Positions 37,165 to 55,065 of a DNA stretch of 55,065 bases are shown piece after piece. Numbering within the stretch: the stretch's first letter is position 1; each line of letters starts with the position of its first letter. A program made the translations under genes and the position numbers. The DNA comes from Vicinamibacterales bacterium (GTDB lineage: Bacteria > Acidobacteriota > Vicinamibacteria > Vicinamibacterales > CAVVIG01), in the NCBI GenBank assembly GCA_040081675.1, contig JBEBGB010000001.1, forward strand, positions 1-55,065. The letters run 5' to 3'. Under the pieces are notes generated by a model. It was not told where the DNA came from. It was given only the letters and a program-made list of their open reading frames with translations, and made no database searches.

Positions 37165-37182
37165 CGGACGTCTTCGCTATCC

Positions 37183-39961: not shown

Positions 39962-40058
39962 AGTCCTCAGGCCTGCGCGTCAGTAGAAGCTCTGACACGC
40001 ACGCCATCTCGCCGTCGCGCGCGCTGCCCCTGCCATTGCCTGCGGCTGAGGGCGCCGT

Positions 40059-41204
40059 GTGACCGCGTCGCCGCTGCGGGTCGCGCTGGTCGCTGACTTG
40101 CTCTCCGAACGATGGCCCAGCATGGATCTGGTAGCGGACATGTTGTTCGCGCAAATGCGCGACGCCGGATCGGACCGATCGATGCGCGTTGACCTGCTTC
40201 GCCCGACGCTGTCGAGCCGCGGAGAGCGTGTCGGCAGATACGTCAATCGGTTCTGGGACTATTCACGGTGGCTGCGGAAGCGAGCGCGTGACTTCGACGT
40301 GTTTCACGTCGTCGATCACAGCTACGCGCACCTTGTGCACGTGCTTCCGGCTGGGCGGGCGATCGTAACCTGCCATGATGTGGACGCGTTCATGCCCCTG
40401 GTTGATGCGCGAGTGATCCCCACTCGACTGCCAAAGACGCTGACTCGATTTGTGTTGTCGGGCATGGCGAAGTCGGCCTGCGTGACGTGTGATTCTCGCG
40501 CCACTTACGACGAGGCACGACGCCACCGTTTCGTCGCACCGGACCGACTTCTGGTCGTGCCGATTGGCGTCGATCCCGCGCTGTCATCCAGGCCTGAGCC
40601 AGCGGCAGACGCCGCCATCGACAGTCTCCTGGGCCCGCGTCGAGCCGACGTTGTCGAACTGCTGCATGTGGGGTCCTGCATTCCGCGCAAGCGAATCGAT
40701 GTGCTGTTGAAGGTCCTGCGAGCGGTGCGCGACGTCGATCCTCGGGTTCGATTGCTCAAGGCCGGCGGCTCGTTGACTCGCGAGCAATTGGCGCTTGCGA
40801 GGACCCTCGCAGTGGACGCGCACATCGTTCAATTGCCCTTTCTCGAATCTCGAACGCTCGGTGCACTCTACCGTCGCGCAGCGGTGACGATCGTGACTTC
40901 CGAGCGCGAAGGTTTCGGTCTGCCGGTCGTCGAGGCCGCGGCGTGCGGCACCCCCGTCGTGGCCACTGACATCCCCGTGCTCCGAGAGGTCGGCGGCAGC
41001 GCGGCCGCCTATGCGCCGCTTGACGATATAGGTCGTTGGCAAGAAGCGATCGTCAGCTATCTGGCCGCCGGCCGAGACGTGGCTCAGTCTCGGCGCATGG
41101 GCGAGGAAGCCGCCGCGCGATTCAGTTGGCGCTCCTGCGCCACAGCCATGGCGGCAATTTACGCTGACGTGGGCCGACGAGCCGCCGACGCAAGTACTCC
41201 ATGA
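40059..41204 (+). CDS. GT-B fold glycosyltransferase (family 4-like)
   Basis: 'LLHVGSCIPRKRIDVLL' and 'TSEREGFGLPVVEAAACGTPVVATDIPVLREV'. Confidence 0.85.
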   Translation: MTASPLRVALVADLLSERWPSMDLVADMLFAQMRDAGSDRSMRVDLLRPTLSSRGERVGRYVNRFWDYSRWLRKRARDFDVFHVVDHSYAHLVHVLPAGRAIVTCHDVDAFMPLVDARVIPTRLPKTLTRFVLSGMAKSACVTCDSRATYDEARRHRFVAPDRLLVVPIGVDPALSSRPEPAADAAIDSLLGPRRADVVELLHVGSCIPRKRIDVLLKVLRAVRDVDPRVRLLKAGGSLTREQLALARTLAVDAHIVQLPFLESRTLGALYRRAAVTIVTSEREGFGLPVVEAAACGTPVVATDIPVLREVGGSAAAYAPLDDIGRWQEAIVSYLAAGRDVAQSRRMGEEAAARFSWRSCATAMAAIYADVGRRAADASTP

Positions 41205-42364
41205 GTGGAGCAGGAAAACGCGGCGGGGAGTCACGCATCGTCGGGTTGGACGGCCTTCGGGCCTTGTCGATTCTGCTGGTGGTGCTCGGCCACGGATGGT
41301 CGACGATTCCGATCGCTCGAAACTTCCCGGGTCTTGGCAGATACCTGGGGAACAGTTCGCTTGGGGTGACGACGTTCTTTGTGATCAGTGGTTACTTGAT
41401 CACGTTTCTGCTCTGCAACGAACGCCGACGCTCGGGCACCATCTCGCTTCCAGCGTTCTACATGCGACGCGTGCTGCGGATTTTCCCCGCCCTGTACGTC
41501 TATCTCCTTGTCCTGGTGCTGGTACGGTCGCTCGGCCTGATTCACACCACCAACGGCGATCTCGGCATAGCCGCGACGTACCTCGCCAACTACAATCATC
41601 TGCTCCCGATCACGACAAACGCCGACTACTGGTTCGTCGGACACTTCTGGTCACTGTCGTTGGAAGAGCAGTTCTATCTGCTGTGGCCCGTTACCCTGCT
41701 CGTGGCTGGTCTGACACGGTCGCGCGCGGTCGCGCTGCTCATCGTGGTGGCATCGCCCGTGATAAGAGTGATCACCTACGCCGTCTGGCCCGAAGCCAGA
41801 GGGCAAATCGGGATGATGCTTCAGACGGCGGTCGATTCGATCATGGTGGGTTGCTATCTCGCGCTGGTCCACGAACAACCTGGCGTCACGGCGTTCTGGA
41901 ACAGGGTGTCATCCTGGGTCTGGCCGCTCGCGGCAAGTGTGTTCCTCGTCCTCGTCTCACCCTGGATGACGTTTCGTTTCGAAGGCGCTTACACCATCAC
42001 GATCGGCATGACGCTGAACAGTCTCGCTATTGCCTTGCTGATTGGCTGGGTCGTCAGAAGCCCCGAGTCAGGATTCAGCCGCGCCCTGTCGACGCCCGCC
42101 TTGCGCTACATCGGGACCCGGTCCTACGGCTTGTATCTGTGGCAGCAGCTCTTTCTCGCACCGAAGGTTGCGATGTGGGTCTTTCCGTTTCCCCTGAACG
42201 TGGTCGCGATTCTGATGGCTGCCGAGTGTTCTTACCGGTGCGTCGAGCGGCCGTTTCTAGGGATGCGGGATCGCTTCCGCGGCGCGACACGCGAGCCAGC
42301 TCGTCACGAGTCATCTCTCGTGTCCACTCACCTTCGCGCCACGCAGCCTGCGATAGACCAGTGA
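41201..42364 (+). CDS. Acyltransferase family 3 membrane protein
   Basis: 'GLDGLRALSILLVVLGHG' N-terminal His motif, about 10 TM segments, and 'LGTRSYGLYLWQ' near the C-terminus. ATGA overlap with the upstream gene. Confidence 0.85.
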   Translation: MSGAGKRGGESRIVGLDGLRALSILLVVLGHGWSTIPIARNFPGLGRYLGNSSLGVTTFFVISGYLITFLLCNERRRSGTISLPAFYMRRVLRIFPALYVYLLVLVLVRSLGLIHTTNGDLGIAATYLANYNHLLPITTNADYWFVGHFWSLSLEEQFYLLWPVTLLVAGLTRSRAVALLIVVASPVIRVITYAVWPEARGQIGMMLQTAVDSIMVGCYLALVHEQPGVTAFWNRVSSWVWPLAASVFLVLVSPWMTFRFEGAYTITIGMTLNSLAIALLIGWVVRSPESGFSRALSTPALRYIGTRSYGLYLWQQLFLAPKVAMWVFPFPLNVVAILMAAECSYRCVERPFLGMRDRFRGATREPARHESSLVSTHLRATQPAIDQ

Positions 42365-43533
42365 CACGCACGAACACGTTGCGCGTGCTACACGTAGGCA
42401 AGTTCTATCCGCCTTCGCGCGGCGGCATGGAGAAGGTGCTACAGGTGCTGGCCGAGGCCGAGCGGTCCGTCGTGGACAACCATGTGCTCGTTGCGAACGA
42501 GGGCCTGTCCACCGTGCGCGAGACGGTCAACGGAGTCCCTGTCACACGCGTCGGCTCGGTGACACGCGTCGGCGCTGTCGCGGTCTGCCCGGCGTTTCCG
42601 TTCTGGATGCGTTCCCTGGACGCGGATGTCATGGTCGTCCATGAGCCGAACCCTGTGGCACTGGTTGCTCATGCGCTCGTGCGCCCCACATCCAAACTCG
42701 TGTTCTGGGTGCATGCAGAGGTCGTGAGGCCTGCGTGGCGGTACAAGGTGTTCTATCGGCCGTTTCTTCGTCGCATGCTCGCGCGCGCCGACCGCATCGT
42801 CGTCGCCTCGCCGCAGATGGTCGAGTGTGCCGCGGAACTCCAGCCGTATCGAGACAAGTGCACCGTGATTCCGTACGGACTCGATGCCGACCAGCACACG
42901 CCGACAGCTGCTATCGCTGCTCGCGTCGCCGCGCTGAAGGCGAAGTCCGATGACCCGATCGTGCTCTTCGTCGGACGGCTCGTGCCCTACAAGGGAGTTG
43001 ACGTTCTCCTGCGTGCCGCTCGGAACGTCAGAGCCCGCGTTGTGATTGTGGGCGACGGGCCGATGCGCCCGGCTCTGGAGCAACAGGCCCGAGAGCTGGA
43101 AATCGCAGACCGGGTCCAATTCACCGGCAATGCAGGTGCGGAGGAGCTGTCGGCTCTCTACAACGCGTGCGATCTCCTCGTCTTGCCGTCTGTCACGAGG
43201 GCTGAAGCCTTCGGCATGGTGCAGCTAGAGGCCATGTCCTGTCGCAAGCCGGTCATCTGCACTGATCTGCCTTCGGGAGTTCCGTGGGTGAATCAGCACG
43301 GCATCACAGGACTGGTGGTGCCTCCGCAAGATCCGGCAGCACTCGCGTCGGCAATGTCCGCGCTCCTCTCCGACCCCGCTACGCGCTCCAGAATGGGCGA
43401 ACTGGGACGCGCGCGCGTCAACAGTCAGTTCACCGTCAGCCGTCTGGTCGAGCAGACGACGCTTCTCTACCGTTCGCTCGTCCAACCGGTGCCAGCGACA
43501 GCTGCCTTGGCAACCTGGCGAGTGGAACGATGA
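42361..43533 (+). CDS. GT-B fold glycosyltransferase (family 4-like)
   Basis: Trimmed to GTG 42361 (GTGA overlap). 'LRVLHVGKFYPPSRGGMEKV', 'VLFVGRLVPYKGVDVLL', 'EAFGMVQLEAMSCRKPVICTDL'. Confidence 0.85.
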   Translation: MTRTNTLRVLHVGKFYPPSRGGMEKVLQVLAEAERSVVDNHVLVANEGLSTVRETVNGVPVTRVGSVTRVGAVAVCPAFPFWMRSLDADVMVVHEPNPVALVAHALVRPTSKLVFWVHAEVVRPAWRYKVFYRPFLRRMLARADRIVVASPQMVECAAELQPYRDKCTVIPYGLDADQHTPTAAIAARVAALKAKSDDPIVLFVGRLVPYKGVDVLLRAARNVRARVVIVGDGPMRPALEQQARELEIADRVQFTGNAGAEELSALYNACDLLVLPSVTRAEAFGMVQLEAMSCRKPVICTDLPSGVPWVNQHGITGLVVPPQDPAALASAMSALLSDPATRSRMGELGRARVNSQFTVSRLVEQTTLLYRSLVQPVPATAALATWRVER

Positions 43534-44195
43534 AGGCGACGGCTGTCGGGACGCCCCCGCTGCGCGCCGCACTGCCGCCAGTGCCCGTGCCGCTTGGTAA
43601 ACGCGCGCTTGACGTCTGTCTCTCGGGCATCGGCCTGCTGGGTTCGGCGCCTATCTGGCTGGCCTTGGCCGTGGCAATCAAGCGCGAAGACGGTGGCCCG
43701 ATTTTCTACACGCAGGACCGGGTAGGAGAGGGCGGCCGGGTGTTCACCGTGTTCAAGTTTCGCTCGATGATCCCCAACGCGGAGGCTGTCGTCGGTGCTG
43801 TGCAGGCCACTGAGGAAGACCCTCGCGTGACACGAGTGGGCAGACTCATGCGAGCGACTGCGATGGACGAATTGCCGCAACTATGGAACATCTTCCGCGG
43901 CGACATGAGCTTTGTCGGTCCGCGCGCGCTTCGGCCGGGTGAAATTGAAGCGACCGGCGAGGCGCTCGTGGCCCTGGAGGATGTTCCTGGATACGCCGAC
44001 CGCTGTCGCGTTCGCCCGGGTTTGACGGGCGTCGCGCAAGTCTACGCGCCGCGAGACGTTGGGCGCCGTAACAAGTTTCGCTACGACCGGGTCTATACAC
44101 TGCGTCAGAGTTTCTGGCTCGATGTGCGACTTATCCTGCTCTCGTTCTGGATCACGTTCCGTGGCCGGTGGGAGCACCGCGGCGAAAAGATATAG
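43530..44195 (+). CDS. Small single-domain polyprenyl-phosphate sugar phosphotransferase (bacterial sugar transferase)
   Basis: Trimmed to ATG 43530 (ATGA overlap). 'PIFYTQDRVGEGGRVFTVFKFRSM' and 'MDELPQLWNIFRGDMSFVGPRA'. Confidence 0.9.
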   Translation: MKATAVGTPPLRAALPPVPVPLGKRALDVCLSGIGLLGSAPIWLALAVAIKREDGGPIFYTQDRVGEGGRVFTVFKFRSMIPNAEAVVGAVQATEEDPRVTRVGRLMRATAMDELPQLWNIFRGDMSFVGPRALRPGEIEATGEALVALEDVPGYADRCRVRPGLTGVAQVYAPRDVGRRNKFRYDRVYTLRQSFWLDVRLILLSFWITFRGRWEHRGEKI

Positions 44196-44254
44196 CGCGC
44201 GCGCGCTCTCTCTCCGTCCCTTCCTTCCTTCCTTTCTTCCTTCCTTTCTTTCTC
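44195..44254. repeat. (GC)6 alternating tract fused to a CT/CCTT-type pyrimidine-rich tract whose last 38 nt (44217-44254) are uninterrupted
   Basis: GCGCGCGCGCGC (44195-44206) is followed by CTCTCTCTCCGTCCCTTCCTTCCTTCCTTTCTTCCTTCCTTTCTTTCTC. The top strand is pure pyrimidine over 44217-44254. The tract begins at the last base of the sugar-transferase stop codon. Confidence 0.9.
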
Positions 44255-44396
44255 GCCGCCTACGGGCGCTCACTCCTCCTCCTGATAGCCCGTCTGAGCT
44301 GTTACGCCTCACGATCGCTGTCCCGGCCGGTGGGTCTGCTCCGCACGTGCGGGCCAGCATCATCAGCGGGCATCGTGAGGTACTCTTAGACCGACG

Positions 44397-45590
44397 ATGC
44401 ATGACGTCCTGGTTGTAGGCGGGGGCCCCGGAGGTCTGTACACCGCCACGCTATTAGCGCGTGAAGGGCTTGACGTGGCAGTCCTCGAGGAGCACGCGAC
44501 ACCGGGTGAACCCGTCCACTGCACCGGGGTACTTGCTGTAGAAGCATTCAGCGAGTTCGGGCTCTCGCGCCAGCCAATCCTGAACGCACTCGCCACGGCA
44601 CGATTCATTTCACCATCAGGCTTGTCGATCGCCCACACGACGCCGCGAACCGAGGCGCTCGTGATCGATCGCGCACTGTTCGACCAGGACCTTCATCGAC
44701 AGGCACGCGAGGCCGGTGCGACCGTCGTTCTCGGCACGCGCGTGAACGCGGTCGACGTCGACAGTACTGGCGTGACGCTGCGAACCGCAGACCGTCATTT
44801 CAGGGCCAGGGCCTGCGTGCTGGCCTGCGGCGCCAACTACTCGTTGCATCGGCAACTCGGTCTCGGTCTCCCCGCGGCCTATTTGCGTTCCGCCCAACTC
44901 GAGATGCGAGCCGCTCGAACTGCCGATGTCGAGGTGTACTTCGGCAACGACGTCGCGCCTCAGGGTTTCGCGTGGGTCGTTCCCGTTGAACGAGGCGCCG
45001 AGCGCTACGCGCGCGTCGGCCTGATGTGCGAAGAAGACCCGTCGGGACACTTTCGACGCTTCGTGGCGCGCAATCGAGAGCCGCTCGGATTGACGGTGCC
45101 GTGCGGGCCAGACGGCGATGTCGTCCCTCGCCAGAAGATCCTGCCGCTGGCGCCTATCGCACACACGTACGCCGACCGCGTCATTGCCGTCGGCGACGCC
45201 GCAGGACTCGTAAAGGCCACGACAGGCGGCGGCATCTACTACAGCCTGGTCTCCGCGTCGATCGGCGCCGACGTTCTCACCGCGGCCCTGAGAACGAACA
45301 CGCTCGAGAGCGCCAGCCTCGCCGCCTACCAGCAGCGCTGGCAGCAGCGACTCGGGCCCGAACTCGACGCGCAGTACTCACTACGCGAGCTCGCCGAGCG
45401 GATGGACGATGACGAGATCGATGCGCTATTCGATCTCGCGCAAACCAACGGTGTGATGCCCATCGTGCGTCGCACCGCGCGCTTCAATCAGCATCGCGAC
45501 CTGATCCTGTCGTTGCTGAAGCATCCTCCCGCGCGCCGGCTCCTCTTCAGGGAGCTCGTGACCCGTGCCACCGCCTTCCCGCTCCGCTAA
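44397..45590 (+). CDS. FAD-dependent oxidoreductase of the geranylgeranyl-reductase family
   Basis: 'HDVLVVGGGPGGLYTATLLAREGLDVAVLEE' and 'RVIAVGDAAGLVKATTGGGIYYS'. 397 aa. Confidence 0.8.
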   Translation: MHDVLVVGGGPGGLYTATLLAREGLDVAVLEEHATPGEPVHCTGVLAVEAFSEFGLSRQPILNALATARFISPSGLSIAHTTPRTEALVIDRALFDQDLHRQAREAGATVVLGTRVNAVDVDSTGVTLRTADRHFRARACVLACGANYSLHRQLGLGLPAAYLRSAQLEMRAARTADVEVYFGNDVAPQGFAWVVPVERGAERYARVGLMCEEDPSGHFRRFVARNREPLGLTVPCGPDGDVVPRQKILPLAPIAHTYADRVIAVGDAAGLVKATTGGGIYYSLVSASIGADVLTAALRTNTLESASLAAYQQRWQQRLGPELDAQYSLRELAERMDDDEIDALFDLAQTNGVMPIVRRTARFNQHRDLILSLLKHPPARRLLFRELVTRATAFPLR

Positions 45591-47034
45591 CGAGCGGCCC
45601 GGTCGTCTGTCGGGCCAGGCGAGCCTCGTGCTCGCGGGTACCCTCGTGGCGCTGGCGTGGGGAGCGTTTGCGTTCGGTGCAGTCTATCGGTGGGCTTACG
45701 TGCCGCTCGCGATCTTGTGCGCGTGTGTCGGTCTCTTCGGTCTCGCCACCGGGAGGCGCTCCGTTTGGGACGCTCGGTGGGTACTCTTCCCGATAGTCGG
45801 CATCGGCCTGATCGGTGCCATCCAGCTCCTACCGCTTCCCGGCAGCTGGCTTGCGCTGGTGAGTCCGGGAACGGTGGCCTTTCTTCGTCGCTACGACCTT
45901 GCGTACGCATTCGCTCTGGATCCGAACACGAACACTCCGGGCGCTGTGACGCACGCGATCTCCGTTTCTCCGCTGTTGACACTGCGCGCCCTCGCTCTCC
46001 TCGCTGCACCACTCCTGCTGTTTGTTGGACTGTATCGCACGCTGTCGCGAACCGCGGCGAGGCGTCTTGCCGCCGGTGTGGTGTCTATCGGCTGCGCGCT
46101 CGCCCTGATTGGTGTCGGCCAGAAGGCGCTGCTGGGCGACCACGCGTACGGTGGCATGCGCATCTACGGCTTCTGGCGTCCCGAGTCGTTGCTTACAACG
46201 CCGTTTGGTCCATTCATCAACAGGAATCACTTCGCAGGCTGGATGCTCATGGGAACGCCACTCGCTCTTGGGCTGGCGGCAGGTGGGTTCGTGCGGGCGC
46301 TGCCCACGCTGCGGGGCAGAGGCGCGCGCGCCTGGCTCGTGTGGTGCTCCGATCCCGACGGTGGACTCACGTTGCTCTACTTCATCGCGGCGATTCTGAT
46401 GACGCTGTCGTTGTTCATGACCGGCTCTCGCTCGGGCATCGGCTGCTTCGTTGTCGTCGCCGCCGGGATGCTCTTCGCCGCGCGCCGACTCGCAAGGGCA
46501 CGAACGATGATTGGGCTGAGCATTGTTGCGACGCTGACGCTCGGGCTCGTGCTGCAGTGGGCCGGCCCGGACGCGGCGCTCGAACGCTTCGTTCGGGAGT
46601 CACAGTCGATGTCGCTTCGGCTGGACATCTGGCGAGCCTCGCTGGAGGCGTTCCGGCAATTTCCAGTGCTCGGCAGTGGCCTGGATAGCTTCGGTACCAC
46701 GATGCTGGTGTTCCAACCAGGGGCAAGGGATTTACGCTACGTCGAAGCTCACAACGAGTACTTGCAGCTGCTCGTCGAGGGCGGACTGGTCACATTTGGC
46801 CTGATGATCCTGGCGATCGCCGCGGTGGTACGCGGCGCCAGACGCCGCTTCCGCGCCGGCGACGATGGACTCGACGGACATTGGGTGCGTGTGGGAGCAG
46901 CCATCGGACTGGTCGCCATCGGGCTGCAGTCACTGGTGGAGTTCAGCCTGCAGATGCCAGGCAACGCGGCTTTGTTCACCGTGTTGCTGGCGATGGTGCT
47001 CTACATCCCCACGCCAATCCGAAACAAACCGTAG
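45565..47034 (+). CDS. O-antigen ligase / Wzy_C-family polytopic membrane protein
   Basis: About 11 TM segments, 'TGSRSGIG' and 'AHNEYLQLLVEGGLVTFGL' (Wzy_C signature). The GTG start overlaps the reductase gene by 26 nt, so the start is uncertain. Confidence 0.8.
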   Translation: MPPPSRSANERPGRLSGQASLVLAGTLVALAWGAFAFGAVYRWAYVPLAILCACVGLFGLATGRRSVWDARWVLFPIVGIGLIGAIQLLPLPGSWLALVSPGTVAFLRRYDLAYAFALDPNTNTPGAVTHAISVSPLLTLRALALLAAPLLLFVGLYRTLSRTAARRLAAGVVSIGCALALIGVGQKALLGDHAYGGMRIYGFWRPESLLTTPFGPFINRNHFAGWMLMGTPLALGLAAGGFVRALPTLRGRGARAWLVWCSDPDGGLTLLYFIAAILMTLSLFMTGSRSGIGCFVVVAAGMLFAARRLARARTMIGLSIVATLTLGLVLQWAGPDAALERFVRESQSMSLRLDIWRASLEAFRQFPVLGSGLDSFGTTMLVFQPGARDLRYVEAHNEYLQLLVEGGLVTFGLMILAIAAVVRGARRRFRAGDDGLDGHWVRVGAAIGLVAIGLQSLVEFSLQMPGNAALFTVLLAMVLYIPTPIRNKP

Positions 47035-47100: not shown

Positions 47101-48234
47101 TCAGTGCGTGTCAGCAGCGCTGCGCCAGAGCCACCGACGAGCGCCACGAAGAGCCCGCAGCACGTACATCGCCGCCAATGGCATGCGGCTCGACGGCGCA
47201 TAGACACTGCGCATGTAGTCGCGGCTCGGAAACAGATGCTCGCGCATCAACTGCGACCGCTCGGACCAGGTTGTGAGCACCCGCAGATCGTCGAGAACGA
47301 CCCTGGCCTGTGCGCGAGGGCGAAGATACTCGGCCGTACGCTCAGGTGCGTGGCTGACCAGTCGAGCGTCGCTGAGCACCCACGCGGGAACGTGCGTGTG
47401 GAGCCACCGGGCTGCCTGCGAAAGACCTTCTCGACACACCGCGGCGACACCACGCTCGGCGATGATCGTCAGAAAACCGTCCCACTCCCGAGCCTCGAGC
47501 CGCGAGGCGATGAGGTGGATGTCGTACGTCCACTTCAACTTGTGAGGTTCGTCGTTGTGGTGAGCCACTTGATGCATGCAGGCGATGAGCAGCGCGTGCA
47601 CATTCGATGGTCCACGGGCACGCGGCCCCAGCGATGGGATCGGCTGCGAGGCCGCGAGCAGCTCATCGAAGCGCAGGACGTGCGCGAAGACCTGCGGGCT
47701 CGCAAGCCGCCAGTGCAGGTCCACGAGGTGAACATCAGCGCCGTGCCGCGTCAGGGCATGGAGTTGCTGGGTCGCCGTCAGCTCGCCGGACGGCTTTGCA
47801 TCGGGGACATAGCCGAGGCCGCCCAGCACGCGGGTTGCGCTATCCCGCTGTGTGCGCCCAACGAGCAGGTCCGAATCGATCCGCGCGCGAAGGTCAGGTC
47901 TCGAGTAATGGCTGTATGCCAGATGACTGCCCTTGATGACCAGCACCTGAACGCCGTCGGCGTCCAGTTCGTTCAGCAACCGGCGCAGTTCAATCTCCGC
48001 AGCCAGGTCGGATGCCGCGAGTTTCTGCGACGCTTCTCGAAACACCCTTCGAAGCGTGTCGGCCAACTGGTCGCCTGCGGCGAGACGATCGGCCACGAGC
48101 GCCACGATATCGTGCTCTCGGGCGGCGCTCAGTAAGAGCTCCGCGTCAGACGTGGTCGATGAGCCCGCATCGCACTCCTCGCCTCTCAGCATCGAAGCCA
48201 GGCACTCATCCAGGCCGATAGATCCCTTCTGCAT
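47101..48234 (-). CDS. Nucleotidyltransferase (PF14907-like, lasso-cluster-associated)
   Basis: Trimmed to ATG 48234, 10 nt after the ABC stop. Pol-beta-type NTase motif 'VIKGSHLAYSHYSRPDLRARIDSDLLV', and 'KWTYDIHLI' further on. Confidence 0.7.
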   Translation of the reverse strand: MQKGSIGLDECLASMLRGEECDAGSSTTSDAELLLSAAREHDIVALVADRLAAGDQLADTLRRVFREASQKLAASDLAAEIELRRLLNELDADGVQVLVIKGSHLAYSHYSRPDLRARIDSDLLVGRTQRDSATRVLGGLGYVPDAKPSGELTATQQLHALTRHGADVHLVDLHWRLASPQVFAHVLRFDELLAASQPIPSLGPRARGPSNVHALLIACMHQVAHHNDEPHKLKWTYDIHLIASRLEAREWDGFLTIIAERGVAAVCREGLSQAARWLHTHVPAWVLSDARLVSHAPERTAEYLRPRAQARVVLDDLRVLTTWSERSQLMREHLFPSRDYMRSVYAPSSRMPLAAMYVLRALRGARRWLWRSAADTH

Positions 48235-48244
48235 GGTCAGCGGC

Positions 48245-50062
48245 TCACGCAGCACCGATCTCGACGCCCTGGGCGTCAGAGAGCGCGCGGAAGCGACTGG
48301 TCGGGTTGCCGAGCAGCGACGACCATGTGCCACACTCCCGCACGCGGCCGCCTTCGATCACGTAGATTTGATCGGCGTTTCTGATGGTGGACAACCGATG
48401 CGTGATGACGACGATCGTGATCTGCTCGTGGAGACCGTCGATCGCCGCCTGAATTCGCTGCTCGTTCTCGGAGTCGAGCGCACTGGTCGCTTCATCCAGA
48501 ATCAGAACCTGGGGCTGTCGTAACAGGGCTCTCGCAAGTGAGAGGCGCTGGCGTTCCCCGCCGGAAACCAGCACACCGCGATCGCCGATCACCGTGTCGA
48601 GCCCAGCCGGAAGGGCACGGACAAAGTCGGCAGCTGCGGACCGCTCCAGGGACTGCCAGATGGCTTCGTCGGTGGCCGAGGGACACGCCCACAACAGGTT
48701 TGCGCGAATGGTGTCGTGAAACAGCAACGTCTCCTGCGCGACGTATCCGATCCTCGCGCGCCACGACTGCAGCCGCTCCGGCGTGAGTGGCATCTCGTCG
48801 ACGAGCACGGCGCCGTGTGCAGGTGTGACGAGGCCCATCATCAGGTCGGCGATCGTGCTCTTGCCTGCGCCAGATGGTCCCACGATCGCGGTGGTCGTAT
48901 GTACGGGCACATGCAGCGTGACATCCTCCAGCGCCGGCCGCCCTGGCGTCTCCAGGTAGCTGAATGTCACATGGCGGCAGTCGAGCGACGCTTCGAACGT
49001 GACGCGGTCGTGCCGGGTTGGCTCGGGCTCCGCCGCAGCGAGGCACTGCGCCTCGGCTTCGACGACGCTCTCGAAGGCGGGCAACTCCACCAGCAACACC
49101 TGCGCCCTCTCATAGAGCGAAGTCACACGTGGCACAAGCCGCGCGAACAGGAAGATGAGCAGCAGCAGCGAGGCTGCGGATATCTGCATGACCGCTTGCG
49201 CGACGTACACGATCGCGGCGAGCAGCACCGCCGAGCCAATCGTCAGCCACTGACGGGCGCGGACGGACGCCGACATCGCACTGAGGCTTGCCTGGCCCAC
49301 CTCCGACGATAGCAGGCCGAAACGTTCCGCAAGACGCGACCCCGCGCCGTATCCCTTGGCCATCTTCATGCCCGCCAGATGGTCGAACGTCGCGCTGTGC
49401 AGACGCGTGGACGCGTCGGTGTACCGTTCGCCTGCAGCGTGTGCCCTCGCGAGTTGCCCTCGCATGGCGAGCGCCAGCACGGCTCCGCAGGTCACCACGA
49501 ACGTGGTCATCACCGGCGAAACCCGGAATGCGAGCACCACGTACACGAGCGCAATCACGCCCGTCACGAACAGGTCCATCAGGTAGTACGCAGCCGACGC
49601 GACACGATCGATCCGTTCGGTCAGCAACTGACCGAAGGTCGATGTTCGAGTTCGCGAGAAGTACACCCACGTGGTGCCCGCGATCGCGCGATGCAGTCGC
49701 CTTCGCAACGTGTCGACGATCTGCTCGCGGAGCCGCGTCTGCACGGTCGTTTGCTGCCGTTGAAGCAGGCTCTGGACGGTAACGATCGTGACGTACAGCG
49801 CCAGAACGGCGGGCAGCGTCGGAACCAGGCCGACCAGGGCGAATCCGCTCCTGAACACGCCCATGACGCGACCGAGAGCGCCCTGCCCCGCGTCGACTCC
49901 GACCAGTTGCAGAAGCGGGATGAGCACCAGAAGCCCGATTCCTTCCGCCAGACCAACGGCGAAGGTCAGGAGCATGGTGAGTGCCGCGCGGCGCGGCGCG
50001 ACCGCGATGATCGCCGTCACGAACTGCCTCAACGCGCGGAGAGTTGGAGAGAGGGTGCTCAC
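48245..50062 (-). CDS. ABC exporter, fused permease + ATPase (McjD-type lasso peptide export/immunity)
   Basis: 605 aa with a 6-TM domain, then Walker A 'GPSGAGKST', signature 'VSGGERQRLSLARA' and Walker B 'LILDEATSALD'. Starts 6 nt after the B2 stop. Confidence 0.9.
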   Translation of the reverse strand: MSTLSPTLRALRQFVTAIIAVAPRRAALTMLLTFAVGLAEGIGLLVLIPLLQLVGVDAGQGALGRVMGVFRSGFALVGLVPTLPAVLALYVTIVTVQSLLQRQQTTVQTRLREQIVDTLRRRLHRAIAGTTWVYFSRTRTSTFGQLLTERIDRVASAAYYLMDLFVTGVIALVYVVLAFRVSPVMTTFVVTCGAVLALAMRGQLARAHAAGERYTDASTRLHSATFDHLAGMKMAKGYGAGSRLAERFGLLSSEVGQASLSAMSASVRARQWLTIGSAVLLAAIVYVAQAVMQISAASLLLLIFLFARLVPRVTSLYERAQVLLVELPAFESVVEAEAQCLAAAEPEPTRHDRVTFEASLDCRHVTFSYLETPGRPALEDVTLHVPVHTTTAIVGPSGAGKSTIADLMMGLVTPAHGAVLVDEMPLTPERLQSWRARIGYVAQETLLFHDTIRANLLWACPSATDEAIWQSLERSAAADFVRALPAGLDTVIGDRGVLVSGGERQRLSLARALLRQPQVLILDEATSALDSENEQRIQAAIDGLHEQITIVVITHRLSTIRNADQIYVIEGGRVRECGTWSSLLGNPTSRFRALSDAQGVEIGAA

Positions 50063-50068
50063 ACCCCG

Positions 50069-50581
50069 CTAGCTCGCTGGAATGCTGTGCGGGGCGCTCG
50101 GCGGCGGCTCGGCGTCCAGGTGTCCGTCAGGACCAAAGGCGAACGCAGGGGTGTAGGACGCAATCGCGGATTGCGGTTCGCCAACCAACTGCCCGTCGAC
50201 CAGCACCCAGGCGTGACCGATCACACCGGCGGGGTCACGACCGACGCCGATGACCAACGTCGGATGCGCGCCCGCCGCGCACAGGTAGCGATACGCGATG
50301 AGGCTGCGTTCGAGACAATTGGCGCCCCGGTTCCACCGCGTGAGACGGGCGCCCCACTGCGCGAACGTGATGATGCGGCGCTCGCGATCGGCGTCTCGAG
50401 TCGCGCGCCGCTGCGGCTGATGCATGACCGCGGCGAGTGACTTCACCGAGACAACGCGTTTCAGCGCTGGAAGGACAAGAGCCCACGCCAATGCCTTGGT
50501 CACCAGGATCGCGTCGGAGACGGTGCGCACTTCCTGACCAAGACGACGAAGCACGTAACCACGCGGTGCGGCTGGAGACAT
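50069..50581 (-). CDS. Lasso peptide leader peptidase B2 (transglutaminase-fold Cys protease)
   Basis: Trimmed to ATG 50581, which overlaps the kinase stop by 1 nt (TGATG). 'GANCLERSLIAYRYL' (catalytic Cys) and 'GVIGHAWVLVDG' (catalytic His). Confidence 0.85.
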   Translation of the reverse strand: MSPAAPRGYVLRRLGQEVRTVSDAILVTKALAWALVLPALKRVVSVKSLAAVMHQPQRRATRDADRERRIITFAQWGARLTRWNRGANCLERSLIAYRYLCAAGAHPTLVIGVGRDPAGVIGHAWVLVDGQLVGEPQSAIASYTPAFAFGPDGHLDAEPPPSAPHSIPAS

Positions 50582-51510
50582 CACTGCACCGTGGGGGACG
50601 GCGTGGTCGGGCCGCGTCGGCGCGCCTGTCCGGTGAGACCGCCGTTCACGCCGCAATCGGCCGCGTGTGCTTCGAGTTGATCGAGGTTGGATGCCAGCGC
50701 GGGGAAGGTTCTGGGAAAGGTGAATCGAAAGGAAGGCACCGCGACGGCCAGCGACAGGTAATCGCGCATGAGCCGTTGGTTGTGTTCCGGCTCGTTGATG
50801 CTGAACGCATGTGCTTGCGCCAGCAAGAGCGGAAGGCTCTCGGCAGCTTTGAGTCGTGTGAACGACACCGGCGTCGACGGGTCAGGCGACGGGTCCAGGG
50901 CGTAGATCACCCTCAGGCGGAGACAGGTCGATGGCCAGTCGAACGGGATATCCGTTGCCTCCGACTTGCCAAAGTACTCTGCTGTCGCTTGACGCAGTCG
51001 TGCTTCGCTTCTGAGGGGGTACAGGTTGATGGGCGCGTCAGTGTCGTTGGGGTGACACGAAAAGGCCAGGGCGTCGTCGGAAACCGGCGTCCATCCAGGA
51101 CGCTGGGCCAGAGCGTACGCGGTTGTGGACTTGCTCGCACCGCTCGGACCAGTGAACGCGATCACGTCGCCAGTTGGCGACGCAACCGCGCTGGCATGCA
51201 GAACCTGTCGGTGCCAGATTGGATAAATGGCGGGGAGCCAGCTTCTCCACACGAGCTGTTCGAACTGGGATCGATCAACTCCGGTGCACGGGCACAGTAC
51301 CAGTTCCGGGCGGTCGGCGGTAAAGGTCGCGCCGCCGAATTCCGGCTGCCAAATCCAGTACTGTTGCCCGACCAGAAAGCAGTGCGTGGGTGCCTCACCG
51401 TCCACGGGCCAGGTGGCCAGATGCTGGCCAGCGGTACTGACACGAACGAATACGTCGTCCGTCTGGCTCACCACCTGCCAACGCAGGACCGGGACGACCC
51501 ACGATGACAC
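50581..51510 (-). CDS. HPr-kinase-homologous peptide kinase (lasso tailoring)
   Basis: P-loop 'FTGPSGASKSTTAYALA' (compare HprK GxSGxGKS). Start set to GTG 51510, just downstream of the precursor stop. The tracked 373-aa ORF extends over the precursor gene in another frame. Start uncertain (+/- 60 nt). Confidence 0.7.
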   Translation of the reverse strand: MSSWVVPVLRWQVVSQTDDVFVRVSTAGQHLATWPVDGEAPTHCFLVGQQYWIWQPEFGGATFTADRPELVLCPCTGVDRSQFEQLVWRSWLPAIYPIWHRQVLHASAVASPTGDVIAFTGPSGASKSTTAYALAQRPGWTPVSDDALAFSCHPNDTDAPINLYPLRSEARLRQATAEYFGKSEATDIPFDWPSTCLRLRVIYALDPSPDPSTPVSFTRLKAAESLPLLLAQAHAFSINEPEHNQRLMRDYLSLAVAVPSFRFTFPRTFPALASNLDQLEAHAADCGVNGGLTGQARRRGPTTPSPTVQ

Positions 51511-51521
51511 GGTCGTAACGC

Positions 51522-51683
51522 CTAGTCGCCCATCATCTGTTCGAGGGTGACGCTGCCGTTGTCCATGTTGATCATCGTCTTCGAGCCTGCCCGGACGAAG
51601 TCGCGCAGGTTGCCGAGTTCTTGAACTGACGGCGAATGCCAGACCGGCTTGAGGCGGGCTTCGTTGCTCTTGGGTGCTGCCAT
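51522..51683 (-). CDS. Lasso peptide precursor (53 aa): MAAPKSNEARLKPVWHSPSVQELGNLRDFVRAGSKTMINMDNGSVTLEQMMGD
   Basis: Not in the ORF track (below its size cut-off). ATG 51683 is preceded by GGGAG (51691-51695) with a 7-nt spacer, and TAG ends at 51522. The leader has W-x2-P-x-V-x3-G spacing like the lasso RRE-recognition motif. The C-terminal part has a small residue followed by Asp 8-10 residues later. It sits between the cyclase and kinase genes. Confidence 0.7.
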   Translation of the reverse strand: MAAPKSNEARLKPVWHSPSVQELGNLRDFVRAGSKTMINMDNGSVTLEQMMGD

Positions 51684-51699
51684 GAAGAAACTCCCTGAA

Positions 51700-51731
51700 C
51701 ACCGCTAACGCGGTGGTTTGTCGGTATTCTA
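51700..51731 (-). promoter_or_regulatory. Possible precursor-specific -10 box (TAGAAT) and 5'-UTR hairpin
   Basis: Minus-strand TAGAAT at 51731-51726, with no convincing -35. The CACCGC-GTTA-GCGGTG hairpin at 51715-51700 would sit at the 5' end of such a transcript, just upstream of the SD. Confidence 0.25.
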
Positions 51732-51814
51732 GCGAATCGGTCGCAGTGCAAGCCAGATTGGTTGGGCTAGAAGCACGACTTTGTGTATACGCGAGGAGAC
51801 AAGCGGCGCCGTTT

Positions 51815-53701
51815 TCAGCGCCCCGTGTGCACTGACGTCCAGAGTTCTGCGCTCATGAGCGCGAACATGCGCACCAATGTGCTGCTGTCCGGGTCCGCTG
51901 ACCCGGCGTCTTCCCGTAAGACCCGCGGGTCTACCAGGTTCAACGCCGACAACGTCTCGAACTGGTGCATCCGCCAGGCGCTCGTCACTCCGTCGCGAAG
52001 AACGCGAAACACCAGATCCTGGCCTTGTTTCGGATATTCCTTTCGTTGCCTGCCGAATCCGAGACCGGGGAGGTGTCGCTCCACGACCGGTCGAAGCAGG
52101 CCCTTGTACTTGTTGCCATGGAGGAGCACTTGCGGCGGAATTCGCCGGAGGAGCTGTACCAACGAGGCGTCGTGGTAGGGAACGAGCAACCGCAGCCCGC
52201 ACAGCCGTTCGACGTGAAATGTCGTCTCGAACTCGTGGTGGACGTACTGGTTGTCATCCGAAAGCGATTGCCGCAGATAGCTTCTCGGAATCCTGCCGGC
52301 GCTGCTTAGTGCCGGCGTTCGTCGGTTCGCGAGATGCTCGATGAGCTCATCTCGCAAGGCGAGGTCTGGGCACAGCCACGCAGGGATTGCGCCGTCCGCA
52401 CGGCTCCGGTGATAGCGTGCCTTGGCGCGTGGAAGCGTCAGCATCGCGAACGAATCGACAAAGGGCCGCACCGCGCCGTGCCAGAGCAGGTGCCTCGCCG
52501 CGCTCCGGTAGGACGCTCCGCCTGTCCCGATCTCCGAGTGAATGAAGCCGCGGAGGTCGCTCAGGCGAAGTCGGCGCAGGAGATCGGCGGCATGAGCGTC
52601 TGGGACAGACAGCCAGTTGTCGGCGCCGGAGCCAGTCAGCAGCGTGTGCAGGTTGCTGTGCACCGCTTCGCGGAAAAAGCCCATGGCGGAGCCGACCCAG
52701 TAGATCCGCGACGGTCCCGGCAACTGCGGCGTCACTTCGAGAGAAAGCTCGACTTCGTTCCGCTCGTGCGTCCACTCCGACTTGCGCCTGACCACGTGCG
52801 GCATGCCCAGCGCGCCGGCCGACTGCGCCTGCTGATCCCACTCATGGAGCAGTTCGTCGGTCTGGCCCGAAAGCGCCACAAGCGGCGGCCGCGCGTGATC
52901 GCGACAGTATTTTGTCGCGAGCGCCGCCAGAGTGACCGAATCGACGCCGCCACTGAGCATGAGGCCGTCTGGCGCAAGCCGCATGCAGCGCGAAACCGCC
53001 CGATAGAGGGCAGGCTCGAATGCGTCCAGAGCCTCGCGTTCGCTGAGGCAGTCGGCGTCGGTTTCGGGCACCGCATCCCAGTACTTGCGTTCGCGCGTGG
53101 TACGGTCCGCAGCAACCTCGAGGTAGTGACCCGGTCGCAGGCGCTTGATGTCTGCAAAGAAGGTCTCGCCGGCGCCGGGCCAGAGCGTCATCGCCGCCAG
53201 AGCCAGTGACAGCCTGTTCGGCGTGTTGGGTACGTCGCCGCTCGCTGCCAGGGTCAGCACGTTCGCGCCGAACCAGATCGCTCGCGGGCCGGCTGAATAG
53301 AACAAGGGATGCCGACCCATGGGATCGCGACCGAGGAACAAGCGATGCGTGTCGGCGTCAGCGATCGCGACGAGATACGCTCCCTCGAGCCTGGACAGGC
53401 ACTCCATGCCCCACGCCTGATACGCCGACGCGACGATGTGCGCGCACGACGCTGCCCCGGGCAGACGCAGTTGCTCGCACAACTCGTCCCGATCGAACAG
53501 GTACCCGTCGAACAGCACGGTGCTCGGGCGTCCCGGCGCGCCGTAGGTCCAGAACGTCGCTCCAGTGTCTGCACGCTGCACATCGAACGGGCCGACGCTG
53601 CTCAGTCCATCTCGGGGCGGCCGGGCCGACCGCTGGTCGTATGCAAAGGCGGCGACCCACAGGGGCAGGTCGTACCGGGTGTCGATACTGGCTGTACTCA
53701 T
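51815..53701 (-). CDS. Lasso cyclase C (asparagine-synthetase B homologue)
   Basis: 628 aa. PP-loop 'MLSGGVDS' is present. The N-terminus 'MSTASIDTRYD' lacks the Cys2 nucleophile of glutamine-hydrolysing AsnB. The start overlaps the PqqD stop (ATGA). Confidence 0.9.
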   Translation of the reverse strand: MSTASIDTRYDLPLWVAAFAYDQRSARPPRDGLSSVGPFDVQRADTGATFWTYGAPGRPSTVLFDGYLFDRDELCEQLRLPGAASCAHIVASAYQAWGMECLSRLEGAYLVAIADADTHRLFLGRDPMGRHPLFYSAGPRAIWFGANVLTLAASGDVPNTPNRLSLALAAMTLWPGAGETFFADIKRLRPGHYLEVAADRTTRERKYWDAVPETDADCLSEREALDAFEPALYRAVSRCMRLAPDGLMLSGGVDSVTLAALATKYCRDHARPPLVALSGQTDELLHEWDQQAQSAGALGMPHVVRRKSEWTHERNEVELSLEVTPQLPGPSRIYWVGSAMGFFREAVHSNLHTLLTGSGADNWLSVPDAHAADLLRRLRLSDLRGFIHSEIGTGGASYRSAARHLLWHGAVRPFVDSFAMLTLPRAKARYHRSRADGAIPAWLCPDLALRDELIEHLANRRTPALSSAGRIPRSYLRQSLSDDNQYVHHEFETTFHVERLCGLRLLVPYHDASLVQLLRRIPPQVLLHGNKYKGLLRPVVERHLPGLGFGRQRKEYPKQGQDLVFRVLRDGVTSAWRMHQFETLSALNLVDPRVLREDAGSADPDSSTLVRMFALMSAELWTSVHTGR

Positions 53702-54006
53702 GGCGAGGGGCCTTCGTGGGCCAGTTCAATCAGCCCCTTTGTTCTGAAGTCCTCGATGAGTCTATGCACTTCGCGCGACACGAGGTCGGTCGGTTCGAGA
53801 TACTCGGCTGCCAGGCGCTCGACGATCTCGTTCACGGTAAGTCCGTCAGCGATCAGCAGTGCGACGCGCGCGGCGGTTTCGTTGAGCGAGTAGGCCGCTT
53901 CAGCGGTCAGCTTCAGAGCGAGAGCCTCGTTGCCCACGTGCCGAATGACGACATCTGGCGCGAACCGAACCGCGGACACCGCATCGGGGAATGGCTGATC
54001 CCCCAT
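53698..54006 (-). CDS. PqqD-family RiPP recognition element (lasso B1)
   Basis: Trimmed to ATG 54006 (TGATG overlap with the methyltransferase stop). 102 aa. 'VVIRHVGNEALALKLTAEAAYSLNETAARVALLIADGLTVNEIVERLAAEY...VHRLIEDFRTKGLI' is the PqqD pattern. Confidence 0.85.
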   Translation of the reverse strand: MGDQPFPDAVSAVRFAPDVVIRHVGNEALALKLTAEAAYSLNETAARVALLIADGLTVNEIVERLAAEYLEPTDLVSREVHRLIEDFRTKGLIELAHEGPSP

Positions 54007-55065
54007 CAGGCAAAGCGCTTCACGATCGCGCGCACGAATCGTGAGGCATCCTCGTGGGTCTGGTACCTGGTCGGCCATTGCTCGAGAACGCCGGCCGCGA
54101 TCTCTCTGACCGGCGTCGTGCCGGCACACCGCGCAAGTACGAACTGCGCGGCCTCGCCTTCGACGTTCAAGGCGGGCAGGTAATCCATCGCCGCCTTCTT
54201 CAGAGTCGACGCCGTCATGGGGTCGGCGAGCATTGTCGAGTGGCGCTGCGAGCCCCCGTTCCACGACACGCGCCAGGTCCAATCACCGTAGGGCGCGCGG
54301 TCGAGGCGAAGTGCCACGCGATCGCCAACCGACAGGGCAATGGGCGGGTCGAGCGGGAGAAAGCCAGCCGACCAGTGCATGGGTTCCGCGTCTGGCGCCG
54401 TCGACACCCAGCGTTCGCCCAGCCGCATCGTGAACCAACCAGCGAAACCGTGACAGAGCTCCGCGGTGCGAACGGTGAATTCGGTCTCGGCGTGAATCGG
54501 TCCGTAACTGTCCGACAGAAAGTCGAGGCTGTGCACCTCGCGGGGTTCGGCGAGATAGACCACGTTCGTGCGATCCCACCGAAAGTGCACGGTGTTGGCC
54601 GCGTATGCGCGAGCGGGCTCGAGCGTCACGCCGTGTTGAGGCTCGCTCCAACTGGAGATCTCGCGGGCGTGCAGACGCGGAGCGCTCACCGGGGCGATGA
54701 CGATCGTGGCTCGGTCGGGAATCATCGCTCCGCCCGGTTTCATGAGCGTGTCGCGCGCGCGGAACAGAACGGGCAGCAGATCCTCGCTCATGAGGAGATT
54801 GCCGGTGAGTACGGACACGATGACGTCCACCGGTTCCGGAATCTGAACGTCGTCGAGACCACCGTGCAGGCACTGCACGACGTCCTGCAAATGGTTGGCG
54901 CGTGCGGCTTCGGACGCAACCGACACCACCTCTTCGGGTTCAACGAGGTAGACGCGCTTCGCTCCAAGTCTGGCCGCCATCAGGCCATGGATGCCGAGAC
55001 CTGCGCCGAGGTCGAGCACGACGCTCGACGGAGTGATCACCCGCTCGAGCGCGTCGGCATACGCA
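54006..55065 (-). CDS. PRMT-fold (protein arginine methyltransferase-like) SAM methyltransferase with C-terminal PqqD/RRE-like extension; 5' end outside window
   Basis: The reading frame is open to the window edge ('AYADALERVITPSSVVLDLGAGLGIHGLMAARLGAKRVYLVE' = SAM motif I/post-I). 'SVLTGNLLMSEDLL' resembles the double-E loop, and 'HGFAGWFTMRL...PMHWSAGFLPL' resembles the PRMT beta-barrel/THW loop. The last ~55-75 aa resemble the helical half of PqqD. Confidence 0.7.
   Translation of the reverse strand, partial: AYADALERVITPSSVVLDLGAGLGIHGLMAARLGAKRVYLVEPEEVVSVASEAARANHLQDVVQCLHGGLDDVQIPEPVDVIVSVLTGNLLMSEDLLPVLFRARDTLMKPGGAMIPDRATIVIAPVSAPRLHAREISSWSEPQHGVTLEPARAYAANTVHFRWDRTNVVYLAEPREVHSLDFLSDSYGPIHAETEFTVRTAELCHGFAGWFTMRLGERWVSTAPDAEPMHWSAGFLPLDPPIALSVGDRVALRLDRAPYGDWTWRVSWNGGSQRHSTMLADPMTASTLKKAAMDYLPALNVEGEAAQFVLARCAGTTPVREIAAGVLEQWPTRYQTHEDASRFVRAIVKRFA

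Follow-up and report, generated by a model that had tools for sequence, protein, structure and literature searches.

The question raised by this locus is what is encoded by a short open reading frame (ORF) lying just ahead of a kinase gene, at positions 51522–51683 of the window (the whole 55,065-nucleotide stretch of DNA that was analysed), and, if it is a peptide precursor, what kind of product is made from it. The ORF runs on the minus strand from an ATG at 51683 to a TAG at 51522 and specifies 53 residues, MAAPKSNEARLKPVWHSPSVQELGNLRDFVRAGSKTMINMDNGSVTLEQMMGD, exactly as the initial annotation had it; the Shine-Dalgarno sequence proposed there, GGGAG, is found at 51691–51695 (minus strand), with a spacer of 7 nt to the ATG, and the W15-x2-P18-x-V20-x3-G24 spacing described for the peptide is correct. 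The best explanation, which we consider very probable, is that a split-B lasso-peptide cluster of a Vicinamibacterales (Acidobacteriota) genome is present here, with the 53-codon ORF as its precursor gene, A; that assessment applies to the explanation as a whole, i.e. to the gene together with the biosynthetic steps proposed below.

The genes of the cluster are all on the minus strand, in the order MT-B1-C-A-K-B2-D-N. MT (54006–55040), the N terminus of which is cut by the contig end, encodes a SAM-dependent methyltransferase of PRMT fold, and is followed by B1 (53698–54006), encoding a 102-residue PqqD-type RRE protein (Pfam PqqD, 3.8e-11; NCBIfam lasso_PqqD, 1.9e-7), and by C (51815–53701), encoding a 628-residue, asparagine-synthetase-like lasso cyclase with matches to Pfam Asn_synthase and GATase_7 and to NCBIfam lasso cyclase models. 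Beyond A lie K (50581–51510), for a kinase of 309 residues read from a GTG at 51510 (100% identical to GenBank ABMA15_00215); B2 (50069–50581, its start set by comparison with the related locus L013), for a transglutaminase-like lasso leader peptidase of 170 residues (Pfam Transglut_core3, 7e-18; NCBIfam lasso_biosyn_B2, 1.5e-15); D (48245–50062), for a 605-residue ABC exporter (Pfam ABC_tran and ABC_membrane); and N (47101–48234, its start placed by alignment to the related locus L001), for an NTP_transf_5 nucleotidyltransferase of ~377 residues (Pfam PF14907, 1.9e-39). The MT/B1 and K/B2 junctions are start-stop overlaps (TGATG), B1 and C overlap by 4 nt (ATGA), and the GTG of K comes 11 nt past the A stop codon. 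A itself is a short ORF that neighbours the genes for C, B1 and B2 and is read in the same direction. The cluster adjoins a polysaccharide locus (Wzy_C, Bac_transf, GT4s and an acyltransferase); such a neighbourhood resembles that of lasso and LPP loci described elsewhere (PMC13381572).

Assignment of K required a fold search because phmmer against PDB sequences returned nothing significant. An AF2 model (pLDDT 90) matches ATP-dependent PEPCK and HprK/P in Foldseek (probability 1.0, E 3e-8 to 1e-6), and K is, as judged from this model, of the HprK/PEPCK fold. Residues H105, K127, D145 and D146 are invariant in the K family (39-homologue alignment), and they correspond to the His-Lys-Asp-Asp catalytic motif that lasso-peptide kinases are reported to have (PMC9266682). 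An HprK-like kinase bearing this motif and an NTP_transf_5 protein (PF14907) are thus both found in the cluster.

A is conserved at its position. A word-index search with the peptide gave four relatives. Four further loci, all in Acidobacteriota/Vicinamibacteria MAGs, came from scanning 185,579 species genomes for a pattern, and another 46 from metagenome contigs scanned with the kinase alignment. Of the loci in which the kinase homologue is preceded by at least 200 nt, 49 of 49 contain a small ORF that has the motif [WYF]xxPx[LVIM]xxxG and ends just before that homologue; small ORFs thus do recur at the same position in related clusters, a point that the initial annotation had proposed to check. 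The loci yield 40 unique precursors, every one with an ATG and a GGAG-type Shine-Dalgarno sequence. When 1.84 billion representatives (50% identity clusters) were searched exhaustively with a profile, 37 matches were obtained at E <= 0.001, ~31 of which are small proteins of 53–80 residues; three long, multi-stretch profile matches (P0255, P0258 and P0278) were rejected as tandem-repeat artefacts. Pfam and NCBIfam scans of the 53-residue peptide gave no match, and the curated precursor models therefore do not cover the A family. The Acidobacteriaceae precursors with Ile/Val(-2) of Duan et al. (from Granulicella and others) belong to a different, unrelated family.

The gene order is conserved with the ORF. 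By tblastn with the window proteins, the order MT-B1-C-A-K(-B2-D) holds even where the C proteins share as little as 32–46% identity, and C is directly upstream of A in every locus long enough to include that stretch. One locus (L014) has two cassettes, C-A1-K-C-A2, the precursors of which have near-identical leaders and different cores, each with its own C and K genes.

The N-terminal part of the peptide has the character of a lasso leader. Residues 12–33 are nearly invariant, and the C-terminal half diverges, i.e. a conserved leader is followed by a more variable core. The conserved leader module, K12–R31 (KPVWHSPSVQELGNLRDFVR; 51591–51650, minus strand), includes the predicted RRE-binding motif (51612–51641, minus strand), which reads W15-H-S-P18-S-V20-Q-E-L-G24; W, P and L-G-N are invariant in all 40 unique precursors, as is a Val at W+15, and the family consensus reads W-x2-P-x-[L/V]-x-E-L-G-N-L-R-D-F-V-R. 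No gaps are needed to align the window leader with those of aborycin, 9401-LP1 and SyanA (z = 4–5 versus shuffles), and on this alignment it is a homologue of lasso leaders already known. For RRE binding the accepted motif is [Y/W]xxPx[L/V/I/F/A] (PMC13381572), which is present, then followed by xxxG, in 40/40 family members. Because kinase-associated lasso peptides are documented to have a nearly invariant WxxP (PMC13381572), the Trp in place of Tyr is expected here rather than new.

From these assignments we infer RRE binding, a cleavage site, a ring, phosphorylation, methylation and lasso topology, as follows. B1 would bind leader residues ~12–31 (KPVWHSPSVQELGNLRDFVR) via W15, P18 and V20, and the leader-bound precursor would be presented to K, which most likely phosphorylates the invariant Ser/Thr that follows an invariant Lys, i.e. 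candidate phospho-acceptor T36 (51576–51578, minus strand), the equivalent of Ser3 of BsfA and LppA; N and the PRMT-fold MT may also act on the precursor. B2 would then remove the leader, C would join the newly formed N-terminal amine to the side chain of D41 (predicted ring acceptor; 51561–51563, minus strand) to give a macrolactam, and D would export the product. There is precedent in BsfA/BsfK for phosphorylation of a core Ser3 in a precursor that lacks Thr(-2) and ends in Asp (PMC10368454).

It may be that the precursor is a genuine RiPP precursor, but that its product is linear, being phosphorylated, glycosylated or methylated through K, N, MT and an RRE in the manner of the LPPs, with C and B2 dispensable or serving another substrate. 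The combination of an RRE with an HprK-like kinase, an NTP-transferase and an exporter (MsbA-like in the LPP clusters) is the core set of those systems, in which core Ser3 is phosphorylated, several RREs occur per locus, and the gene sets often co-localise with lasso genes and with polysaccharide loci (Popov et al. 2026, PMC13381572). The cluster here adjoins a Wzy/GT locus and has more than one RRE-type domain; the close relative L001 has K and N with neither B2 nor D on its 11.7-kb contig; and the canonical leader–core junction yields no ring of 7–9 residues. However, C is directly upstream of A wherever a locus reaches that far, and each precursor type of the two-cassette locus has its own C. 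LPP clusters have an SpI-type signal peptidase, no cyclase and a YxxP leader motif, and are from Bacillota, whereas C and B2 are present here and none of the eight cluster genes belongs to a signal-peptidase family; nor has a second candidate precursor been seen in the cluster. Further, the spacing between the invariant Lys-Ser/Thr and the invariant Asp of the core is constant, as is to be expected if the Asp is a ring acceptor. A linear product is thus improbable, and a lasso peptide is preferred.

For the preferred lasso product, the evidence on the position of the leader–core junction is conflicting. In known lasso peptides core residue 1 is Gly, Ala, Ser or Cys, the ring acceptor, an Asp or Glu, falls at core position 7–9, and Thr(-2) is otherwise near-universal. 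In the A family, Thr(-2) is absent: Val is at the canonical -2 position in 40/40 precursors, and under the model based on the core pattern, Ala is there in 37/40. The absence of Thr(-2) makes lasso membership less likely without excluding it, because Ile/Val/Ala(-2) exceptions are documented in lasso precursors (PMC10368454).

The family core pattern is A-x|[G/S/T/N]-K-[S/T]-x4-D, in which the bar marks the putative junction. K-[S/T] is found in 40/40 precursors and an Asp four residues on, at +8, in 39/40; the position preceding the invariant Lys is occupied by Gly in 36 of the 40, by Ser in the window, by Thr in two and by Asn in one, and Ala stands two residues ahead of putative core residue 1 in 37/40. 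Taking the residue before the invariant Lys as residue 1 gives an 8-residue ring on Asp8, with Ala(-2) and a Ser/Thr at position 3. The linker between F-V-R and the K-[S/T]-x4-D module ranges from two residues in the window to nine (in P0286); with a junction of the S34 type, the indels fall in this linker, where they are tolerable. In the window, the best-guess core is therefore S34–D53, SKTMINMDNGSVTLEQMMGD (51525–51584, minus strand), with a predicted S34–D41 isopeptide ring of eight residues. The tail of the family core carries a G-x-E-[S/A]-M motif, represented in the window by E48-Q-M50, and is without a classic bulky plug residue; exactly two Cys residues occur in 16/40 precursors.

Of the three residues (A32, G33 and S34) offered in the initial annotation as possible N-terminal amines, with D41 as the acidic acceptor, two would give a ring within that range. 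The Asp is at core position 8 if S34 starts the core, at 9 if G33 does (51585–51587, minus strand; 9-residue ring) and at 10 if A32 does, so that a macrolactam from G33 or S34 to D41 is possible, whereas A32 puts D41 outside the 7–9 range. The family pattern favours S34 with its 8-residue ring over G33, and we would give S34 about an even chance of being residue 1. With S34 as residue 1, the closest relatives (P0001, P0003 and P0002) would have to begin their cores with Thr or Asn, which is unusual, and a G33 start avoids this in three of four close members; G33 is, on the sequence pattern, possible, if rather doubtful.

Core residue 1 is unlikely to be A32, or the macrocycle to be non-canonical, although the leader itself points that way. 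In its gap-free alignment to other lasso leaders, V30 falls opposite Thr(-2) and A32 becomes the first core residue (junction R31|A32), the -2 residue is then Val in 40/40, and kinase-type lasso precursors with Ile/Val(-2) are on record (PMC10368454). With A32 as residue 1, the first acidic residue is at core position 10 in the window and at 10–14 across the family, such that cleavage at V30-R31|A32 would have to be followed by closure of a ring of at least 10 residues, or by a link between the side chains of the invariant Lys and the Asp, the Lys being always six residues ahead of the Asp. Ring sizes would, however, run from 10 to ~17 within one family, which is implausible for homologous cyclases, and position 32 is variable (T/V/S/A/H). 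Moreover, rings above nine residues, or use of a Lys side chain, are not known for any lasso cyclase (PMC10368454). Cleavage at A32 with such a macrocycle is accordingly very improbable; a junction at some other position is somewhat less likely than an A32 start or non-canonical ring taken in general, and S34 remains the preferred first residue.

The closest known system is found in Bradymonas sediminis, as the bsf cluster (Duan et al. 2023, PMC10368454). The two clusters have in common split B1/B2 proteins, an HPr-kinase-like K, a nucleotidyltransferase N and a leader without Thr(-2); in both BsfA and the window peptide, an 8-residue ring on Asp8 is predicted and the C-terminal residue is Asp, not Ser. 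BsfA has the layout G1...S3...D8, and its kinase acts on core Ser3 (Thr being tolerated) with the leader attached and B1 helping (PMC10368454). The corresponding Gly1-x-Ser/Thr3...Asp8 arrangement is seen, in putative core numbering, in the 36 of 40 relatives with G-K-S-x4-D, and as S-K-T-x4-D in the window. There are differences: in BsfA the motif is YxxPxL, at -17 to -12, and residue -2 is Ile, whereas the window precursor has WxxPxV and the family a linker of 2–9 residues before the putative core, which places W at -19 in the window and at -22 in most relatives. The invariant Lys2 and the PRMT-fold MT in the cluster are features of the window family and not of BsfA, and the host phylum is different.

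Paeninodin-like systems (paeninodin, ThcoA, pseudomycoidin and SyanA; PMC9266682, PMC6993621) share with the window cluster discrete B1/B2, C, D, an HprK-like kinase with the His-Lys-Asp-Asp motif, and NTP_transf_5, and their leaders are also of WxxP type, that of SyanA being among those to which the window leader aligns. Their precursors, by contrast, have Thr(-2) and place W at -15, and their kinases phosphorylate a C-terminal Ser that is strictly conserved. In the window the last residues of the peptide are ...MMGD, and a C-terminal Ser occurs in only 1/40 of the family precursors. Thus, the system resembles the kinase-bearing, split-B lasso clusters but is without two classical markers, namely Thr(-2) and the paeninodin-type C-terminal Ser; together with these absences, the variable 2–9-residue linker and the PRMT-fold MT are its unusual features.

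The MT is one of a family of over 1,000 proteins, 361–373 residues in length. Its fold is that of a type-I PRMT (Foldseek E ~1e-25 to PRMT3/1/6/8; profile versus PRMT6, E 6e-53), but the first Glu of the double-E loop is replaced by Val (SVLTGN versus SEWMGY); the second Glu is retained, as is the HW of the THW loop. An additional C-terminal domain matches PqqD weakly (E 0.078) and is modelled as a three-helix bundle without a beta-wing. SAM-dependent methyltransferases are encoded in other lasso operons, i.e. those of lassomycin-type C-terminal O-methyltransferases and PIMT-type aspartimide formers (PMC9266682), and the MT here probably acts on the precursor; it differs from these tailoring enzymes in its type-I PRMT fold, in the loss of the first double-E Glu and in the extra C-terminal helical domain. 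Arginine is an unlikely target, because 34/40 predicted cores have no Arg. Searches of open-access papers gave no description of PRMTs or arginine methyltransferases in lasso or RiPP clusters, an absence that is itself weak evidence, and nothing relevant on lasso peptides of Vicinamibacteria.

In practical terms the gain is modest: a 'hypothetical protein' can be given a name as a lasso precursor, with confirmation of where the adjacent kinase starts, and the A family does not overturn current understanding of lasso biosynthesis. The wider value lies in the family, with at least 40 distinct precursors from soil Acidobacteriota, having a WxxP leader and always accompanied by an HprK-like kinase and a PRMT-fold MT. 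If the MT modifies the peptide, it would represent a new class of tailoring enzyme for lasso/RiPP chemistry, and the variable linker would offer a test of cleavage-site choice by B1 and B2. More tentatively, and in our view doubtfully, the window may be the type example of a widespread lasso subfamily of soil Acidobacteriota, in which the junction is uncoupled from the RRE motif by the variable linker, the core has an invariant Lys-Ser/Thr...Asp, and tailoring is threefold, by Ser/Thr3 phosphorylation, NTP-transferase-dependent decoration and PRMT-fold methylation of a non-arginine residue, e.g. the invariant Lys; the MT of such a subfamily may carry its own RRE-like leader-binding domain.

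That the small ORF, rather than the frame overlapping it, is the coding one does not follow from its length. In this DNA (63.5% GC), a mechanical list gives 74 ORFs of at least 30 residues within the last 7 kb, so that an ORF of such a size is alone no evidence of a gene. A 373-residue ORF does exist in another frame at 50581–51702, as had been claimed, and arises from taking the longest ORF mechanically. The GC content by codon position is 0.57/0.41/0.81 in the A frame and 0.77/0.55/0.45 in the kinase-extension frame over the same DNA; the third-position value of the A frame is in line with those of neighbouring genes (0.72–0.80), whereas that of the extension is not. Compared with L001, the closest independent relative, 17/25 nucleotide differences in A are at third positions, which are first positions of the extension frame, and the codon changes comprise 16 that are synonymous and six that are non-synonymous, five of the latter being in residues 3–10 and none beyond residue 34. 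The extension frame is, moreover, interrupted by stops within the A gene in both L001 and L008. All 39 kinase homologues (41–87% identical to the window protein) start at M-x-x-W-x-x-P, the position of the GTG at 51510, with W4, P7 and W11 conserved.

Codon-position GC, the synonymous pattern and the 49/49 conservation show the small-ORF frame to be the coding one, and the 53-codon ORF is a conserved coding gene rather than a product of chance; the 64 codons at 51511–51702 (minus strand) are a spurious, shadow-frame 5' extension of the kinase ORF, as is evident from its codon-position GC and the stops in L001 and L008. The contrary proposal, that the small ORF is a chance shadow of a true 373-residue kinase with an N-terminal extension, could appeal to the long ORF being open and starting with GTG and to the many spurious ORFs that high-GC genomes yield, but is effectively refuted by these comparisons, by the NCBI annotation of 309 residues and by the absence of the 373-residue sequence from every sequence collection searched.

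The public record of A also qualifies the way in which it was first presented. The lasso precursor reading of the initial annotation is strongly supported by the gene order, the leader and the kinase start; its description of the gene as unannotated and masked by an over-extended kinase ORF is not. The window is the full length of a GenBank contig from a Vicinamibacterales MAG, and an identical 53-residue sequence is already in GenBank on that same contig as a 'hypothetical protein' (MEQ1907213.1, locus ABMA15_00220), a record that is without a functional name, and the GenBank kinase has 309 residues from the GTG at 51510. Nor do automated gene callers miss the gene, as had been anticipated: the metagenome callers give the small ORF and the short kinase in every relative examined. 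The first 64 residues of the 373-residue ORF, described as rich in Arg, Pro and Gly, do contain 11 R, 6 G and 5 P, and are also rich in Gln (7 Q).

The spacer between C and A, of 131 nt, contains a -10-like box, GCTAGAAT, at 51726–51733 (minus strand). A scan of 51300–52000 for the full sigma-70 consensus and for terminators found no sites, and there is hence no good -35 to accompany the box; a strict extended -10 pattern is seen in only 10/38 loci. Enrichment is confined to relaxed patterns: TAnnnT occurs at -66 to -34 in 37/38 loci, against 1.8 expected, and TAnnAT in 28/38, against 0.3 expected. A probably has its own -10-type promoter within the spacer, and its Shine-Dalgarno sequence is a strong one. 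Between the box and the Shine-Dalgarno sequence lies a GC-rich hairpin, CACCGC-GTTA-GCGGTG (51700–51715, minus strand), which may form a 5' stem-loop of the mRNA. Hairpins similar to it are found in many relatives; their MFE z-scores versus shuffles, from -2.5 to +1.4, are not significant and so lend a conserved RNA structure no statistical support, and the hairpin region has no match in Rfam. No terminator lies between A and K, and, because K starts only 11 nt after the A stop codon, the two genes are probably co-transcribed and may be translationally coupled.

The methyltransferase encoded at the end of the lasso-peptide cluster (54006-55040, minus strand; the 5' end of the gene is lost at the contig end) has a type-I PRMT fold, the arginine-binding double-E loop of which is altered in that its first Glu is replaced by Val (SVLTGN vs SEWMGY in PRMT6); that loop's second Glu is retained, as is the HW of the THW loop. 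Arg is absent from 34/40 of the family cores, making arginine an unlikely target. Its C terminus bears an additional three-helix domain of ~55 aa, with a weak PqqD match.

In 16 of the 40 unique precursors the C-terminal tail contains exactly two Cys (e.g. ...MCGGEAMQIDAGTCPATPR), suggesting that one sub-branch of the family has a disulfide within the tail; examples occur in the related loci L011 (9974-10168), L021, L034, and L036. The window peptide contains no Cys. The stretch upstream of its gene (51700-51733, minus strand) has a -10-like box, GCTAGAAT, and then a GC-rich hairpin, with the Shine-Dalgarno sequence coming next; this arrangement suggests that the precursor gene has its own promoter and its mRNA a 5' stem-loop. 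TAnnnT is found in the equivalent region of 37 of 38 loci (1.8 expected); the hairpin is without statistical support.

Among the relatives, one contig (L014) carries two paralogous cassettes, in the order C-A1-K-C-A2 (C, cyclase; A, precursor; K, kinase), each with a separate cyclase and at least the first with its own kinase; the precursors (1039-1203 and 4218-4382) have near-identical leaders and different cores (GKSIVTADGASMAGNESML vs GGNKSMVNMDNGSVTLEQMMGD). In the close relative L001 (kinase 76% identical) the gene order is PqqD-methyltransferase-PqqD-C-A-K-nucleotidyltransferase, with neither the B2 peptidase nor the ABC exporter being found on the whole 11.7-kb contig; the extra, discrete PqqD gene lies upstream of the methyltransferase, in a region corresponding to sequence beyond the window's end. 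On a Microflora Danica MAG contig (L012), tblastn matches to the cyclase, peptidase, and exporter are broken across several frames and the precursor ORF (9965-10261) extends to 98 aa, features that look like assembly frameshift errors rather than biology.

Convergent with the lasso cluster is a plus-strand polysaccharide biosynthesis locus (36046-47034), including Bac_transf (43284-44195) and Wzy_C (45565-47034) genes, together with those for an FAD oxidoreductase, Acyl_transf_3, three GT4 glycosyltransferases, and an FkbM methyltransferase. This neighborhood is similar to the capsule loci in which kinase/NTP-transferase lasso and linear polyphosphorylated peptide (LPP) clusters are reported to be embedded (PMC13381572). 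The L001 cluster has the same Wzy_C neighbor.
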